Shown here in pieces: positions 26,219-32,505 of a DNA stretch of 64,000 bases; within the stretch, counting starts at the first letter, position 1, and every line of letters starts with the position of its first letter. Where the stretch lies: positions 1 to 64,000 of IMG/VR virus record IMGVR_UViG_3300028388_006015, one strand, 5' to 3'. The notes under the pieces are model-generated. The model was not told the origin of the DNA. It saw only the letters and a list, made by a program, of their open reading frames with translations, and made no database searches. The stretch is from a virus. The position numbers and the translations under genes were made by a program.

Positions 26219-28618
26219 TTATGATTTTGGTATGCGCTGTACCATTACAACAACATAGTAATTAGGATAATATGTTACTGGATCGCCACTCAAACCGTCA
26301 TTGCTTCCATCTTCAGTAGTTCCAACGATCAAGTGACTATGTGAATGTTCGTTGGTGTTTTTACCATCCAATGGATCAGCAAGTTCTCGACCGCCACCTC
26401 GATTAAAACCTGCATCACGGTGCGAACCTACTGCAGTACCGCTGTTTCTCGTATATATACGATGCGTGTGAGTGTCTGTGTTTGTGGTTAACGAGCCTGC
26501 TTCATGTGTATGAGGAGGAAGATTTTGCTTGCTAAGTGCAAAAGAATTAGATCCACCAACAGCTCCGATGTTTTCTAGACCATTTTCTGATGCATTGCGA
26601 TTGACGATGAAGCGACCTCTAAGATCAGGTGTATTGTTTTGACCGTTACAAAGAGCCCATCCGTAATACTCAGGAATTTGTCCTAGTCCACTTCCATCAA
26701 ATGCATTAACGGGAATATTGGATAGTGTACGAATCTCATACAACCAATGCTTGTCTTTTTCGACAGGAAAAGCGATCCATTGAGTTCCCGTGTAATAACA
26801 TTCAACTACAACTTTTTGATCTCCCCATTTTTGATAATCAATGTCAACAGCACTTAGTGCGTAGATAGGAGAGTCGCCTGGACCACTATAATTGCCGTAA
26901 ATCTCTATAGCATTACCGTTAGGTATGATATTTGCTTGAAAAATCAATACGAATTTATTACCTGCTCTTAAATCAGAGCCAGTGCAATTAAACAATAAAG
27001 GATTGCTTAAAGTAATATTTCCGGTAATGTATTGAATTTGAGCTGCAGTTCCTACAACAAGATCTATTTGAGAAGAGCTAAATGTTATTTCATACTCATC
27101 AACTCCAAGATTATCGCCAAGATCAATATTAAACGAAAATGTGCCATAATGGCGAGGATGAGCATTTAATGTTATAAATGGCGTGCCGAGAATATTACTA
27201 GAATACGATACTTGTGTGCGATCTGCAGGATTGGTTTTAAGATCACCATCCTCTTCAAACGACTCTTCATCATAATACCCAACATCATCACTCTGAAATA
27301 CTCGCCACTCAGTTAATACTCCATTAACTTTATAGCGATACCAGAATGCATAAGAGTATGCCGTTCTACTTGCTACTGTTAACGGAACCCAAGCATTATA
27401 GCTATTTATTGGATAAATTTGGCGAAAATCGTTTTGAGCGTTCAGATCTTCAGGAATACACCAAAGCTCAATATCATCAACATCAGGCGTTATTACGACA
27501 CGATATGCTGTGAAATAATCGTCCTGATCAAGTGTTGGAACGATAAGATTGATTTGACTGCCACTTTTTGTAGATTGCTCGATAATTTTATACGATCCAT
27601 CGTATGAATACAAGCGCCACCCGTCAAAGTCGCCATCACTAAAATCATCTGTTGATTTAAAACGTCCACCCTGACCTCCATTGATTGTAAATGTTCTACT
27701 TGCAGTATCTATCGTCCAATTTTGTGTATAAAACGCCCAACTAACATAACACACGTTCTTGTATCTCGGAGTGTTTGGCGCATCGTATTTAATAGCTTCT
27801 ACTCCAATAACAGGATTTTGTTGATCGCGCATTGCTTGTGGAATCGTCTGACTACGAAACTCACTACGCAACATCCAAAAATCACTACGTTTGTCTTGAA
27901 TAAACACAGTAGATCCCACATAACGAACCCTTGCAATATAAAACTCTTTACCACTAGTTAAAGGCGGTGGGGTATTTGAGATAGTTTCGAGAACAAATTC
28001 AAGATTGCAACTATCATACTGGTATATGTTTTTTTGATTTGATGTTGGAATGTGATCGAACGAAAATGTTCCGACAATAGCATACTGAAGATCGGATTCT
28101 GCTGCGAATACGCCATTTAATACAGCATTCGTATCATCCACAACATCGACAACGTCATATTCAAGAGTATTTCCTGCAGATCCAATAAAACGAATGCGAG
28201 TGGGGACTTTACTGGTACGTAATACCTCAGTAAATTTTGTATTAACACCAATAAGATTTCCTTGAGTGTCGATACTAACTGTTCCTTCTTCGATAGAAGA
28301 ATATTGATGGCTAATTTTTAACCAATACCAATTATTCTCTGCAGGAATAGCGATATTGTCTTGAGCAGGAAAGTCAAGAACAAGACCATCACTATCAATA
28401 GCATACGATCGAGTGTCGATTTTTATCGTTGGTGTGTTCGTTCCTTTCTCTACCTTGAAATTGTTCAAACCCACATCATCTACTGTACGAATGATGCCAT
28501 AACTGTAGGTTTGATCAATTATGAGTTTACGATAACCGTCTGTATCAAGAAAATCAATCAGACGCTGCAATTCAGGTTGCCCAATTTTAAGATTAGGTGA
28601 TATATTTAACTGACTCAT
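26219..28618 (-). CDS. Baseplate wedge/short tail fibre with tail-collar domain
   Basis: GWALCNGQNNTPDLRGRFIV collar, NLPPHTH and HTH/HSH metal-binding repeats; start at MSQLN. Confidence 0.85.
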   Translation of the reverse strand: MSQLNISPNLKIGQPELQRLIDFLDTDGYRKLIIDQTYSYGIIRTVDDVGLNNFKVEKGTNTPTIKIDTRSYAIDSDGLVLDFPAQDNIAIPAENNWYWLKISHQYSSIEEGTVSIDTQGNLIGVNTKFTEVLRTSKVPTRIRFIGSAGNTLEYDVVDVVDDTNAVLNGVFAAESDLQYAIVGTFSFDHIPTSNQKNIYQYDSCNLEFVLETISNTPPPLTSGKEFYIARVRYVGSTVFIQDKRSDFWMLRSEFRSQTIPQAMRDQQNPVIGVEAIKYDAPNTPRYKNVCYVSWAFYTQNWTIDTASRTFTINGGQGGRFKSTDDFSDGDFDGWRLYSYDGSYKIIEQSTKSGSQINLIVPTLDQDDYFTAYRVVITPDVDDIELWCIPEDLNAQNDFRQIYPINSYNAWVPLTVASRTAYSYAFWYRYKVNGVLTEWRVFQSDDVGYYDEESFEEDGDLKTNPADRTQVSYSSNILGTPFITLNAHPRHYGTFSFNIDLGDNLGVDEYEITFSSSQIDLVVGTAAQIQYITGNITLSNPLLFNCTGSDLRAGNKFVLIFQANIIPNGNAIEIYGNYSGPGDSPIYALSAVDIDYQKWGDQKVVVECYYTGTQWIAFPVEKDKHWLYEIRTLSNIPVNAFDGSGLGQIPEYYGWALCNGQNNTPDLRGRFIVNRNASENGLENIGAVGGSNSFALSKQNLPPHTHEAGSLTTNTDTHTHRIYTRNSGTAVGSHRDAGFNRGGGRELADPLDGKNTNEHSHSHLIVGTTEDGSNDGLSGDPVTYYPNYYVVVMVQRIPKS

Positions 28619-30192
28619 TGCAAAAATTCTACGTTTAGTCCCCAATTATATGGGGTAAAATATTGTCTAAATATACTAATAATTTGTCGCTGAGAATACC
28701 GACCGTTGTTATTTCTTATAAAGAATTCCAACATGCCGTGACTATCAAGAAATCCAAAATCATAAGGTGTTGTTGCGAGTGAAAATTTAAAATCGTGCAA
28801 TGTTACAGTTCCAGTGTCATTATCTGTGCAAATAATAAAAGGAAGCACCTTACATACATCTTTTGTCATTCTCTTATGGTATCCAACACCAACACTTAAT
28901 ATAGCATCAACTTCTTCTCTAGGAGTTGCAGTGGAGCTTAATAGCGCAAAGCGTAATGGATATACCGTATCTGCCTGATTAACACTTATGTTTTGCACAT
29001 AATACCTACTAAAATCTCCGGTATAAATATTTTGCGGCTCAGTTTCTGCATCTTCACTCGTTAAACACAAAATCCCTACTGTAATATTTTCTGACGTATT
29101 GTCGTCAATCTCAAGATCAATTGTCAACATATAATTAAGCAAGTGATTGACGTTAATGAGCTTATCAGCATCAACATCCAATAAAACGTCTGTACCTAAT
29201 CCACTATCTGGTGGCAGTGTTAACGCTGCATTGCTTATAGTTTCTCCTGTATTGTATGTTTGATAGTTCGATATGTCAGAAAAGCCGTAAAACTGCTCGT
29301 ATCCTTTATAGAATGCATTGTAGTAGTATACATCACGAAACTCAGGAGATGCACGATCTAATACCCATCCGGCATCAAAAAAACCTCTGTACGCGCGAAT
29401 AAATTCATTGCATCCTTCATAACACAACAATCTTAAAATCTCCCCATTTATATTTTGCTGCTCAATTATACTGTTTTGCGTTAAGCGATCACGAAATTGT
29501 ATGTGAATATTATTTGCTATGTATTGAAGTTGTTCAAGAGTCTCACTTCCACACAAATATACATTGCGCTGCTCTAAATAACGCCTTAATAGTATTTCGC
29601 GATTGTAGAAATCCTCAAATACACGCGCATAATTAACAAACATTGAAAAGAAACACGCTACTGTCCTCCAAAACTGGAGATAGTGAATATCATCCAAGTA
29701 ATTGTCAGTATCTCCACGATTAATATAATTAGGAACAATGCCCTGCTCATATAGCTTTTCAAGTACATTAACGCACCACGGAAAAATTTCAGCACTACAA
29801 CAGCATGTGAAAAAATTAACAAACGGACTATCATTAAATGCGTCACCACACTCAATATCAATGTATGTTGCATTAATTTGAATGCTATTAAACGACAATA
29901 CACCAGTGTCGTCCGATCCAACTCGGCGATATTGAAACTGAAGAAACAAAGGGTCTTGTGGCGTAAATTCGCTATTGATACCAGCAAGGTTGGTATTACT
30001 CAATGGAATCCAATCACTCCACAGAAATCCAACAACAGACCAACGAAAATACTTTTCAAACAAACGCGTTCCCGTAACACCATCTACGTCGTCGGAATAA
30101 CTAACGAGCTCGTCAACTCCAACAAACGGATTAGTTGGATGTATTAGTAAAATGTCGCCTATCTGTGTTAAGTGATTATTTACTATTGCCAT
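28615..30192 (-). CDS. Baseplate wedge protein (putative)
   Basis: 525 aa; position downstream of baseplate J. Confidence 0.6.
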   Translation of the reverse strand: MAIVNNHLTQIGDILLIHPTNPFVGVDELVSYSDDVDGVTGTRLFEKYFRWSVVGFLWSDWIPLSNTNLAGINSEFTPQDPLFLQFQYRRVGSDDTGVLSFNSIQINATYIDIECGDAFNDSPFVNFFTCCCSAEIFPWCVNVLEKLYEQGIVPNYINRGDTDNYLDDIHYLQFWRTVACFFSMFVNYARVFEDFYNREILLRRYLEQRNVYLCGSETLEQLQYIANNIHIQFRDRLTQNSIIEQQNINGEILRLLCYEGCNEFIRAYRGFFDAGWVLDRASPEFRDVYYYNAFYKGYEQFYGFSDISNYQTYNTGETISNAALTLPPDSGLGTDVLLDVDADKLINVNHLLNYMLTIDLEIDDNTSENITVGILCLTSEDAETEPQNIYTGDFSRYYVQNISVNQADTVYPLRFALLSSTATPREEVDAILSVGVGYHKRMTKDVCKVLPFIICTDNDTGTVTLHDFKFSLATTPYDFGFLDSHGMLEFFIRNNNGRYSQRQIISIFRQYFTPYNWGLNVEFLQ

Positions 30193-30203
30193 ATACTATT
30201 GAT

Positions 30204-30575
30204 TTACCAAAACCAACACTCCTCCTCGTCATCTGCATTTTTTGCCAACCAGGGGCCGTCTGAACTATTCCATACCCAATATACAGTAACTGTCAAAACT
30301 GCATCAGGGTCTGTATAGATGTCTCCAATTGCAATTGCTCGAAATAAATAAATGCCGGGATCGTAAAATTCTATTTGAGGATTATATCCTGCATTCAATG
30401 GATCGTCGGGAAAATATTGACCAACAACACCATTAACGCGAAATGTGGCTTCTGTATAACTGAGTGAAGAGGAGTTTAACAAAAACCCCTCAAACACCCA
30501 GTAAATATCCGTAGGAATAACATTGCTGCTATTCTCAGGTGCATTTTGCAGTTGATTATATAATCGAATGCTCAT
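30204..30575 (-). CDS. Divergent single adhesin-repeat domain protein
   Basis: Starts IRLYNQLQNAP (cf. ITLIDQLDGTP); FYDPGIYLF...VLTVTVY; in frame with the upstream gene (TAA-ATG). Confidence 0.6.
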   Translation of the reverse strand: MSIRLYNQLQNAPENSSNVIPTDIYWVFEGFLLNSSSLSYTEATFRVNGVVGQYFPDDPLNAGYNPQIEFYDPGIYLFRAIAIGDIYTDPDAVLTVTVYWVWNSSDGPWLAKNADDEEECWFW

Positions 30576-31160
30576 TTATGTAATAGATTCTCCTGGAAAA
30601 GAAATAACAGGCTCAGTAGCGCACACTTCAATAGCTGCATCGCTACCAACATTTCCACCAAGATATACTGTAATCGTCAAAACAGAAGTAACTGTACAAC
30701 ACTCACAGTCGCCGTCTGTACCAGGCTTTACAACTTCATATGTAAACGCATATACCGTACCACTCTCACTACCATCACCTGCTGCAGGATCATACGTACC
30801 TGCATTACCATCAAACGTTCCATTAGGTATTGGCGGATCAACAGTCCACGTACCTCCAACATCTGGAGTTCCATCGAGTTGATCTATTAACGTTATCACA
30901 GAAGCTCCCTCGGTTGTAGATATGGCTGTATTACTTCCGGCATCAGGACGTCCACCTACAGTAACTGTAACAGACGCAGGAGAATCAATCTCGTTAAACC
31001 AATATTCAAACACATAATCTCCATGAGCAACAGCACACATATCGAGACTACCAAGATAACCTCCAGTAATTGGTACGGTTTGAGGACCTGATACTTGCTC
31101 CCATTCACCTCCTGGATCGGGAGTTCCACCTAATTTAGCAAAAAGATTAAACGTGCACAT
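30576..31160 (-). CDS. Protein made of Bacteroidota adhesin-type repeats (L..L.G.PD.GG.W)
   Basis: FNLFAKLGGTPDPGGEW and ITLIDQLDGTPDVGGTW...YAFTYEV; C-terminal NVGSDAAIEVC. Confidence 0.75.
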   Translation of the reverse strand: MCTFNLFAKLGGTPDPGGEWEQVSGPQTVPITGGYLGSLDMCAVAHGDYVFEYWFNEIDSPASVTVTVGGRPDAGSNTAISTTEGASVITLIDQLDGTPDVGGTWTVDPPIPNGTFDGNAGTYDPAAGDGSESGTVYAFTYEVVKPGTDGDCECCTVTSVLTITVYLGGNVGSDAAIEVCATEPVISFPGESIT

Positions 31161-31172
31161 GATTGTATATTT

Positions 31173-31307
31173 TTAACTTGGCGTACTACAAACTTCAATT
31201 GAGTTATCGGAACCTACGTTACTACCTACATACTCAACAAGAATTGTTAAATTGGGATCAATTCTCGTAACTGTGGTTTGTGTTGGTGTTAATATTGCTT
31301 CGTTCAT
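31173..31307 (-). CDS. 44-aa peptide carrying the first strand of the same repeat
   Basis: Hand translation MNEAILTPTQTTVTRIDPNLTILVEYVGSNVGSDNSIEVCSTPS; not in the ORF track; fills the gap after baseplate J. Confidence 0.7.
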   Translation of the reverse strand: MNEAILTPTQTTVTRIDPNLTILVEYVGSNVGSDNSIEVCSTPS

Positions 31308-31308
31308 A

Positions 31309-32505
31309 TTAATTGGTGGTTAGTGTTTGTTGAAACGAAAAGTCAGGATTTAATGGATAATATACAGGAACAAGATTGCCTTGAATATCACTAATGATAG
31401 CACCATCTCCATCCAACATCAAGAATCCTCTAATTCTCGGAAGTTTGTTAATATCGACCGGAACATCAATATTTGGTGTGAAATATGTATCTGAGATATA
31501 CTTTACACCCTTTTGCGATTTCGCTATTGTTAATAAATCGTCCCATTCTACTGTTTGACCAGGCAACCACGTTACCGGATCAAGATATTTGCTCATTGCT
31601 GTTTGAGTATTGATGCGAACATCGTCTGCATTAGCATCAGCCTCTAATACAACTCTAAAGCTAATATCAATTGCCTGATACTCAATATTCTCCATAACAA
31701 TGCCAATATTAGCATTGCCAGGACTTGCTAATTCACTTAAAGACAAGTACGAGCTGATGCTTTGTGTTAGTGTTTGAAGTTCACTGCTCGATAACAACAC
31801 ACCATTTTGCGTAATTACTTTAAGTATGCTTTGTCCTTGATCGTTAGATCCGTGATATCGAATATCTAAAACATTTTCGTTAATCGAATGACACACTTGA
31901 ACAAGATATGCTAATGTCCCTCTATTGTTAATGTTCCACGAATTTTTAATACGTGCCTTGAAATTATCATCACTCTCATTATCTCTACCGCCAATGGCTT
32001 GATATTCATTAACAACGTATCGGTGTCCAGATGGAGCACTGTTAATGATCGTTATGCTTAGTGGATCTACATTCGTTGCACTACCTAAATCAGTACTGCG
32101 AACCCTTGCGTATGTGTATCCACTCGATGGAATAGCAACGTTTTTTGTCAATTCAAACGTAATACCGTGATTCCCCGTAAATGTATGAACTCCTTGCTGA
32201 TACACAGTACCTGCAGTACCAACAAGTCTTATAAATGTACTACTTCCCGCTGCTCCGAATCGTGGAGGAATGCCATAAAACTGAGCAATATTGTCAAGAT
32301 ATTGTCCTGACGCAAAATCAGGAAATAAATGAGTTTCCACAAGGGCAACGTCCTTAGCAGCTTTTTGACCTGCTTTACCCATACCCCATGCCATGCCTGA
32401 CAAAACACTATTAGGAGAAACCTTGGTTACATCAGCAGTGTTATTAATGATCATTTCAATAAACAACCGATGATAAAACTCACTATCTTGAACTCGTGTA
32501 AACAT
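31309..32505 (-). CDS. Baseplate J-like wedge protein
   Basis: ASGQYLDNIA..YGIPPR, GSATNV, GGRDNESDDNFKARI. Confidence 0.92.
   Translation of the reverse strand: MFTRVQDSEFYHRLFIEMIINNTADVTKVSPNSVLSGMAWGMGKAGQKAAKDVALVETHLFPDFASGQYLDNIAQFYGIPPRFGAAGSSTFIRLVGTAGTVYQQGVHTFTGNHGITFELTKNVAIPSSGYTYARVRSTDLGSATNVDPLSITIINSAPSGHRYVVNEYQAIGGRDNESDDNFKARIKNSWNINNRGTLAYLVQVCHSINENVLDIRYHGSNDQGQSILKVITQNGVLLSSSELQTLTQSISSYLSLSELASPGNANIGIVMENIEYQAIDISFRVVLEADANADDVRINTQTAMSKYLDPVTWLPGQTVEWDDLLTIAKSQKGVKYISDTYFTPNIDVPVDINKLPRIRGFLMLDGDGAIISDIQGNLVPVYYPLNPDFSFQQTLTTN

Follow-up and report, generated by a model that had tools for sequence, protein, structure and literature searches.

An adhesin domain divided between two adjacent genes in the baseplate module of an uncultured Bacteroidota phage, and the possible rejoining of its parts by strand complementation

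The DNA analyzed here (the window) comprises the first 64 kb (positions 1 to 64,000) of the 75-kb IMG/VR record IMGVR_UViG_3300028388_006015, an uncultured virus with an estimated completeness of 72%. All genes of the window are carried by the minus strand. Within the contractile-tail baseplate module, the region between positions 30204 and 31307 translates as a single frame that is broken by two TAA codons (31173-31175 and 30576-30578) into open reading frames (ORFs) of 44, 194, and 123 amino acids (aa). A PKD-like, immunoglobulin (Ig)-like domain, the first in a row of beads, is split over the first two of these genes: its A strand closes the 44-aa ORF, and the remainder of the domain opens the 194-aa ORF.

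The 44-aa ORF (31173..31307, minus strand) starts 1 nt past the stop codon of the gene for a Baseplate J-like protein (J). The motif at its N-terminus, M-x-E-x-x-L-T-P-T, is conserved, whereas its middle is variable and rich in Thr; ahead of the TAA, it ends in a C-terminal donor strand, NVGSDNSIEVC (31188..31220, minus strand), which makes up the A strand of the first PKD-like domain (domain 1) and occupies positions 3-13 of the repeat profile described below. At the first junction (31161..31175, minus strand), the sequence ...IEVCSTPS is followed by the TAA and a 12-nt spacer, that is, four codons reading KYTI, before the ATG of the 194-aa protein (30576..31160, minus strand). The latter comprises domain 1 without its A strand (approximately residues 1-70), a complete domain 2 (approximately residues 71-169), and, at the C-terminus, a spare A strand, NVGSDAAIEVC (30621..30653, minus strand), with a 14-residue tail leading to the second TAA. 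The two donor strands are identical in 9 of the 11 residues. At the second junction, the peptide ...GESIT is followed by TAAATG, with no spacer, where the 123-aa ORF begins (30204..30575, minus strand); this ORF encodes an orphan protein that might be an acceptor or a terminal domain.

A preliminary description of this DNA, made from the sequence alone, had reported the common frame of the three ORFs, the sequences of both donor strands, and an intact internal repeat in which the two halves are contiguous, all of which we confirmed. Its statement that a single TAA separates consecutive ORFs holds for the 194/123 boundary, whereas the 44/194 boundary includes the four additional codons. The two stops were also said to fall at the same point of the repeat; they indeed share a loop, but the first is 4 and the second 14 residues past the Cys. 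Finally, the 44-aa ORF, considered unannotated, had already been called as protein P0138 in a public collection.

The affinity of the beads was established by an exhaustive HMMER search against 1.84 billion representative sequences, with the conceptual read-through product of the three ORFs as the query. This search matched 415 proteins at 30-41% identity, nearly all of them 1000-4000 residues long, with many matched stretches in each; the named matches are gliding motility-associated C-terminal domain or type IX secretion system (T9SS) type B sorting-domain proteins of Flavobacteriales. These cellular adhesins carry the repeat without interruption, at a period of about 86 residues. A repeat profile based on 1767 copies (consensus qPnAGtDgtltvCstdaavdLfdlLGGtPdaGGtW...YtYtv..C..atvtvtv) matches residues 30-116 of the read-through product across the first stop (E 1e-15), such that the stop, spacer, and Met of the first junction are accommodated as 7 inserted residues between positions 16 and 17 of the profile, in the A-B loop. 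Residues 120-215 make up one whole repeat unit (E 2.6e-20), and past residue 215 the profile matches the donor strand alone (residues 219-235, E 0.005). Because the profile aligns across the first stop, the first cut, as judged from this alignment, falls firmly inside a domain. When membership in the PKD/Ig-like repeat family of the Flavobacteriales T9SS type B adhesins was assessed unit by unit, domains 1 and 2 each gave a whole-unit match. The Pfam PKD families (PF22352 and PF00801) did not reach the gathering threshold: PF22352 (K319L-like_PKD) scored 15.9 bits against the 194-aa protein, with a threshold of 27 (E 0.013), in a match restricted to profile positions 32-84, the last 50 or so of 84. 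We therefore class the beads as PKD-like by fold and not as members of these Pfam families. A sequence search of the PDB produced no match.

Structure prediction with AlphaFold2 (AF2) was performed for the fused read-through chain (76 aligned sequences) and for the 194-aa monomer. In the model of the fused chain, the two beads are predicted with a predicted local distance difference test score (pLDDT) of about 90, the junction scores about 60, and the third part remains below 50; the donor strand of the 44-aa ORF (residues 35-40) is modeled as a beta strand, again at a pLDDT of about 90. Structure comparison places the bead borders at residues 28-119 and 120-219. The first of these units is superimposed on the PKD domains of AAVR with a Z score of 7.0 and a root mean square deviation of 2.7 Å over 79 aligned residues, and a second AAVR PKD match covers residues 32-118 (Z 6.8); because a Z score near 7 is middling, this comparison gives the fold class only. 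The top Foldseek match is the Aureispira grappling-hook protein GhpA (9fly). The xAGxD strand is the first strand of the PKD-type beta-sandwich in the model, and the unit borders taken together with the PKD superposition assign the xVGSD strand, at the level of the predicted structures, to the bead that follows it, as had been assumed in the preliminary description. In the model of the 194-aa monomer (mean pLDDT 85, both beads at about 90), the C-terminal 25 residues are unstructured, with the pLDDT falling from 74 to 48, and the C-terminal strand, for which folding back onto the protein's own N-domain had been contemplated, is not docked there.

The split is not peculiar to the window. Among 5.8 billion protein clusters, we detected only three orthologues of the 194-aa protein, namely, the window's own, P0153 (200 aa, 63% identity), and P0023 (183 aa, 58% identity). 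All three share the start M..C..(N/D)LF at the same position of the repeat, past the A strand, so the acceptor lacks its first strand in each case, as had been noted for the window. Two of the three terminate just past the spare strand; the C-terminus of P0023 is NVGSDASVTVCADN, with the strand kept as NVGSDASVTVC. P0153 is encoded on another IMG/VR contig, L020, in which the first junction has the same layout as in the window: J, TAA, 1 nt, a 41-aa ORF ending in DPGSDNSITVCS, TAA, 12 nt, ATG, and the 200-aa ORF. In both the window and L020, the strand that is lacking in the long protein is found at the end of the neighboring product, the 44-aa and the 41-aa ORF, respectively. A fused orthologue, on either side of the cut, was found neither among proteins of 106-340 or 341-2000 residues (the best identity among the matches in the latter range was 41%) nor in the exhaustive HMMER search. 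Of the two outcomes that, according to the preliminary description, would refute its model, neither was observed: the relatives do not have a continuous ORF, and the C-terminal strand is not folded back in the monomer model described above.

Comparison of the window with L020 shows which parts of the small ORF are constrained. Synonymous sites are saturated between the two genomes (proportion of synonymous differences, pS, about 0.7). The first 12 codons of the small ORF are nonetheless 67% identical and the donor end is 75% identical (pS 0.94, with Ser encoded by TCC in one case and by AGT in the other), whereas the 16 middle codons show only 6% identity. Because both ends are conserved and the middle is not, at saturated synonymous sites, this comparison identifies the small ORF as a real gene with two constrained ends and indicates that the donor motifs are subject to purifying selection. 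The spacer peptides, KYTI in the window and NNDI in L020, differ and show no conservation at the protein level. The N-terminal motif, in the form M-x-E-x-x-(L/I)-T-P, is common to the 44-aa ORF and a 48-aa ORF that follows J in a distant relative, L023.

A separate feature of the first joint is a pair of cysteines. One Cys stands at the end of the donor strand in every small ORF (..VCS; 31188-31190 in the window and 9980-9982 in L020), and another is found 2-4 residues into every orthologue of the 194-aa protein (MC.., MAVC.., and MSAC..; 31155-31157 in the window and 10010-10012 in L020). The uninterrupted cellular repeat has one Cys at this place, versus the pair flanking the cut in the phage. 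Conceivably, the two could form an inter-chain disulfide.

The first joint is well supported by comparison of the relatives and by modeling. Given the two conserved spare A strands and an acceptor bead without that strand, insertion in trans is the most economical explanation; judged from sequence and models, strand complementation in trans at the first joint has, in our estimate, about an even chance of being correct. We give the same, evenly balanced credence to the broader reading, namely, a conserved gene fission whose pieces are made separately and rejoined by strand complementation, with the 44-aa peptide serving as a baseplate adaptor. The ancestral design would have been a small adhesin of three PKD/Ig-like beads, of the kind found in the giant T9SS surface proteins of Flavobacteriales, lodged in an accessory slot of the baseplate of a Bacteroidota myophage. 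The conserved N-terminus of the 44-aa peptide would dock on the baseplate, probably on J, and its C-terminal strand would take, non-covalently, the A-strand place left vacant in the 194-aa protein. The spare strand of the latter would then plug into the 123-aa protein, another copy of the 194-aa protein, or another baseplate protein. The module as a whole might function as a peripheral modular adhesin that aids reversible attachment to the host surface.

Several observations weigh against this interpretation. Three orthologous genes are known altogether, and a single relative, L020, provides DNA context. Domain 1 is predicted by AF2 at a pLDDT of about 90 even without the A strand, so that, going by the monomer model, this strand could be dispensable for the domain. 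The second joint is half supported: there is a clear, conserved donor and no established acceptor. The preliminary description took the 123-aa protein for a repeat without its first strand, a claim that found no support. No relatives of this protein were found in searches that included the exhaustive HMMER search, its alignment with the repeat profile has an hhalign probability of 0.1%, the profile beyond domain 2 matches nothing but the donor strand, the model stays below a pLDDT of 50, and this third unit could not be placed in the PKD/Ig-like repeat family. The leads from the Atlas are weak Ig-like ones, with scores below 0.9, and the likeness of the protein to the repeat is limited to a short motif, IRLYNQLQNAP, and an LTVTVY strand. 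Nor is there a homologue of the 123-aa protein in L020. In that contig (L020:10474-12136), homology to the window ceases just after GGTVGTDA, and from there to the contig end lies a fragment, in convergent orientation, of a giant protein of PHROG 358 (E 1.5e-188) with no counterpart in the window's genome; this end may represent a chimera or a rearrangement at a repeat border. Finally, the in-frame layout is equally what read-through of the stops needs.

Separately, the C-terminal tail of the 123-aa protein, NADDEEECWFW (30204-30275), has an acidic-aromatic composition without parallel in the repeat family.

Some of these observations fit a neutral history, an unlikely explanation but still one to be taken seriously, under which nonsense mutations cut one gene and nearby starts rescued the pieces, which now act independently or are dispensable in part, leaving spare strands that are vestigial and do not dock, along with a 123-aa gene that is unrelated or decaying. 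The in-frame layout would then be a trace of fission by point mutation; the confident folding of domain 1 without its A strand, the orphan status of the 123-aa protein, with no repeat signal, and the dispensability of the module, whose place is taken directly by a homologue of the downstream 525-aa gene in L025, L027, and Chryseobacterium phage MA9V-3, all agree with such a scenario. What this scenario does not readily accommodate is the pattern of constraint. At saturated synonymous divergence, no part of the genes is better conserved than the donor motifs (75% versus 6% within the small ORF), NVGSDA..VC is retained in P0023, and the cut is stable across all known orthologues. Mere debris would hardly take the form of a 44-aa ORF conserved at both ends.

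Considerably less probable, in our assessment, is the full model of the preliminary description, in which a head-to-tail, pilus-like filament of the 194-aa protein, joined through its own C-terminal strand, is anchored by the 44-aa peptide and capped by the 123-aa protein. The 194-aa protein combines a putative socket with a matching donor strand; with the donors identical in 9 of the 11 residues, its C-terminus could fit the socket proposed for the 44-aa peptide, and this C-terminus is free in the monomer model. The absence of a donor-like C-terminus from the 123-aa protein would suit a cap. However, every donor strand is close to the general consensus of the repeat, and the likeness between them is thus no specific pointer to a fit of the 194-aa protein to itself; the cap is neither conserved nor demonstrably an acceptor, and a 1:1:1 chain accounts for the same data. 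A bolder version, to which we attach the same low credence, envisages a virus-borne, pilus-like chain made up of the 44-aa peptide, the 194-aa protein, and a terminal protein, whose pre-split Ig domains would assemble without protease, chaperone, or usher; the 194-aa protein would polymerize through its spare strand, and a disulfide between the paired Cys would, after release, lock the first joint.

If ribosomes read through both TAA codons, in a programmed or leaky fashion, they would produce a 367-residue three-domain protein, either as the sole product or in addition to the short ones. Among the bacterial stops, TAA shows the least leakage, and both release factors recognize it. In this genome, it is also the commonest stop, terminating 42 of the 68 long ORFs; reassignment of TAA was considered and rejected on these grounds, along with the dense coding under the standard code. 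The points that recommend read-through are that all the ORFs are in frame, with the first split again in frame and with the same 12-nt spacer in L020, and that the product aligns continuously with the repeat. However, in-frame neighbors occur throughout the genome at the chance rate (21 of 70 junctions), so the frame shared by the 44-, 194-, and 123-aa ORFs means little on its own, and none of the other in-frame junctions has repeat-like sequence flanking the stop. An ATG lies within 0-4 codons past each stop in the window, and likewise at the first junction of L020, where read-through would not need one, and the spacer is not conserved as protein. There is no tRNA gene in the 75-kb record (which, at 72% completeness, leaves room for one elsewhere in the genome) or in the loci of L020, L022, and L023, and RNA structure at the stops is unremarkable (z 0.6, 0.09, and -0.16, the first two of these values being those for the first junction). 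All in all, we identified no suppressor tRNA, recoding signal, or genome-wide excess of in-frame junctions, and the probability of read-through appears very low, precedents notwithstanding: phages are known to append Ig-like domains to proteins by recoding, in the form of frameshifting (PMC5009743). We also considered a fusion of J with the 44-aa ORF by +1 frameshifting and dropped it, as the window and L020 do not have the same slip sites. The nearby ATG codons, the non-coding-like spacer, the lack of tRNA and of RNA structure, and the standard use of TAA favor separate translation of the pieces, and the abutting stops and starts suggest that this translation is coupled.

That the stops are assembly or sequencing errors is barely credible even for a contig from an uncultured virus, considering that the first stop and its surroundings recur in an independent contig (L020) from another sample and that two independent orthologues end past the spare strand or start at the same point.

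The surroundings of the split genes indicate that they occupy a variable slot in an otherwise conserved baseplate locus. Along the minus strand, the gene order is a 245-aa tube-initiator-like protein, a 317-aa wedge-like protein, the 398-aa J, the 44/194/123-aa ORFs, a 525-aa protein, and an 808-aa tail fiber. J (31309..32505, minus strand) matches Pfam Baseplate_J (E 6.8e-17) and the PHROG 6 baseplate wedge subunit (E 2.6e-34). Its relatives, with 37-53% identity, come from uncultured phages along with Chryseobacterium and Bacteroides phages; identity to Chryseobacterium phage MA9V-3 and the Bacteroides phages is 37-45%, and this relationship of J points to a member of Bacteroidota as the host. 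The conserved 525-aa baseplate protein (28615..30192, minus strand) is similar to a 649-aa protein of L022 (BLASTP E 2e-46). In relatives that lack an insert, its homologues adjoin J directly and therefore mark the downstream edge of the slot. The 808-aa tail fiber (26219..28645, minus strand) carries a collar-type C-terminal domain and matches PHROG tail fiber and tail collar families with E down to 2.9e-12; this ORF is listed with a TTG start and overlaps the 525-aa gene by 31 nt (28615-28645), and the fiber gene may in fact start further downstream.

The content of the slot varies among the relatives. It is empty in L025, L027/L028, and Chryseobacterium phage MA9V-3; L022 and L031/L032 encode cadherin-like and PKD proteins (246/259 and 459/539 aa, respectively); and L023 has the 48-aa ORF and a 104-aa ORF ahead of a collagen-like fiber. 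This variability of the region between J and the 525-aa gene marks the 44/194/123 set as an accessory adhesin module and not as part of the core baseplate. No close relative of the module, at the DNA or protein level, was found among cultured phages. Scans of viral contigs with single proteins (J, the 194-aa protein, or P0023) gave no match, and of two scans of metagenomes, the first came back empty and the second returned cellular adhesins only.

Some details of the slot in the relatives deserve mention in their own right. In L023, a distant relative with a high GC content (L023:7214-7708), the 48-aa ORF directly after J starts with MPETTITPAQ and is in frame with the 104-aa ORF, from which it is separated by one stop and 11 codons; the collagen-like tail fiber comes next. 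In L022 (L022:7140-7200), the J-like gene has a TAA nine codons ahead of the homologous end; past this stop, the frame reads FQTTVIK (FQQTLTTN in the window) up to a second TAA that overlaps the next ATG (TAATG). The early TAA is either a recent nonsense mutation that trims 8 residues or a leaky stop. Further on (L022:7890-7960 and L031:6940-7010), the cadherin-like protein ends in ...FDYTIHDKI and ...LDFTVYDNVP, respectively, and the next, PKD-bearing protein has a strand-like start, MNTLTIKVLAK in L022 and MSNTLTIQITAK in L031, with the Pfam PKD domain beginning at residue 20. The two genes share a frame in L022 but not in L031. On the strength of these sequences, this may be a second kind of split joint, in which the last strand comes from the downstream protein. 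A split F/G strand at the junction of the 246-aa and 459-aa proteins of L022 received no support from a pairwise domain test (z -0.7), and the Pfam domain does not span the stop.

Completion of one Ig-like subunit by a strand of another is familiar from several systems. The chaperone-usher pili (Fim, Pap, and Caf1) are built by donor-strand complementation and exchange. They share with the present case an Ig-like subunit encoded without one strand and, if the proposed arrangement is correct, the supply of this strand by a neighbor and the logic of anchor, shaft, and tip. The polarity is opposite: the G strand is missing and the donor is N-terminal in the pili, whereas here the A strand is missing and the donor is C-terminal; neither chaperone nor usher is present here. 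The type V pili of Bacteroidota (FimA/Mfa1), which assemble by protease-mediated strand exchange (PMC13655056), have the polarity proposed here: the N-terminal strand of each following beta-sandwich gives way to a C-terminal donor, and the result is a head-to-tail, non-covalent chain. The host phylum is also the same. Those pilins, however, are synthesized as complete, self-complemented subunits, which a protease then opens, whereas in the phage the strand is missing from the gene itself; the pilin fold and family contrast with the PKD-like fold here, with no sequence relation found; and pilin assembly takes place outside the cell, as opposed to the cytoplasmic assembly of a phage.

The T9SS type B adhesins of Flavobacteriales belong to the same repeat family by sequence, and GhpA is similar by structure. 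These cellular proteins contain 10 to more than 20 uninterrupted repeats in 1000-4000 aa, along with secretion signals and the CHU_C sorting domain; the phage version is limited to three beads, without a sorting domain, and is spread over three genes. Programmed frameshifting, in the account given by a review, attaches Ig-like domains to the structural proteins of phages (Fraser et al. 2006, reviewed in PMC5009743), another case of accessory Ig-like domains that are added to the virion through an unusual genetic junction. The outcome there is one recoded chain, whereas here the start codons, the unconserved spacer, and the absence of a recoding signal point to separate chains.

The nearest solved case is the baseplate of Lactococcus phage Tuc2009, where, in the crystal structure, a 25-residue C-terminal hairpin of BppU completes one beta-sheet in the C-terminal beta-sandwich of the accessory protein BppA, resulting in a composite titin Ig-like domain (PMC4742702). 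There, as predicted here, a C-terminal extension of a baseplate protein supplies one or more strands to an incomplete Ig-like domain of a peripheral accessory adhesin; in both cases, some relatives have the accessory part and others lack it. The two cases differ in that a two-strand hairpin enters a C-terminal domain in Tuc2009, compared with a single A strand entering an N-terminal PKD-like domain here; the first donor here is on a free 44-aa peptide, not on a large baseplate protein; and the second spare strand here suggests a serial chain. The phages themselves are unrelated, a siphophage of Lactococcus and a myophage of Bacteroidota, and the former case is a solved structure, whereas the latter is known from sequence and models.

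If the complementation reading is correct, the locus encodes a natural, hard-wired split-domain connector, in which a peptide of 44 residues serves as the tether between the phage baseplate and an adhesin of host origin. The Tuc2009 baseplate, the one solved example from a phage, would then be joined by a case with a different fold position, phage type, and host phylum, the swapping of accessory adhesins in a fixed baseplate slot would be explained, and a compact peptide/domain pair would become available for protein engineering. For annotation, the lesson is not to dismiss very small ORFs downstream of baseplate genes, which can be real, and not to expect gene borders always to coincide with domain borders in the fiber regions of phages. 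Compared with the known systems, the present case stands apart in the combination of a single A-strand donor, a PKD-like acceptor derived from host adhesins, a free 44-aa adaptor, and a possible serial chain.

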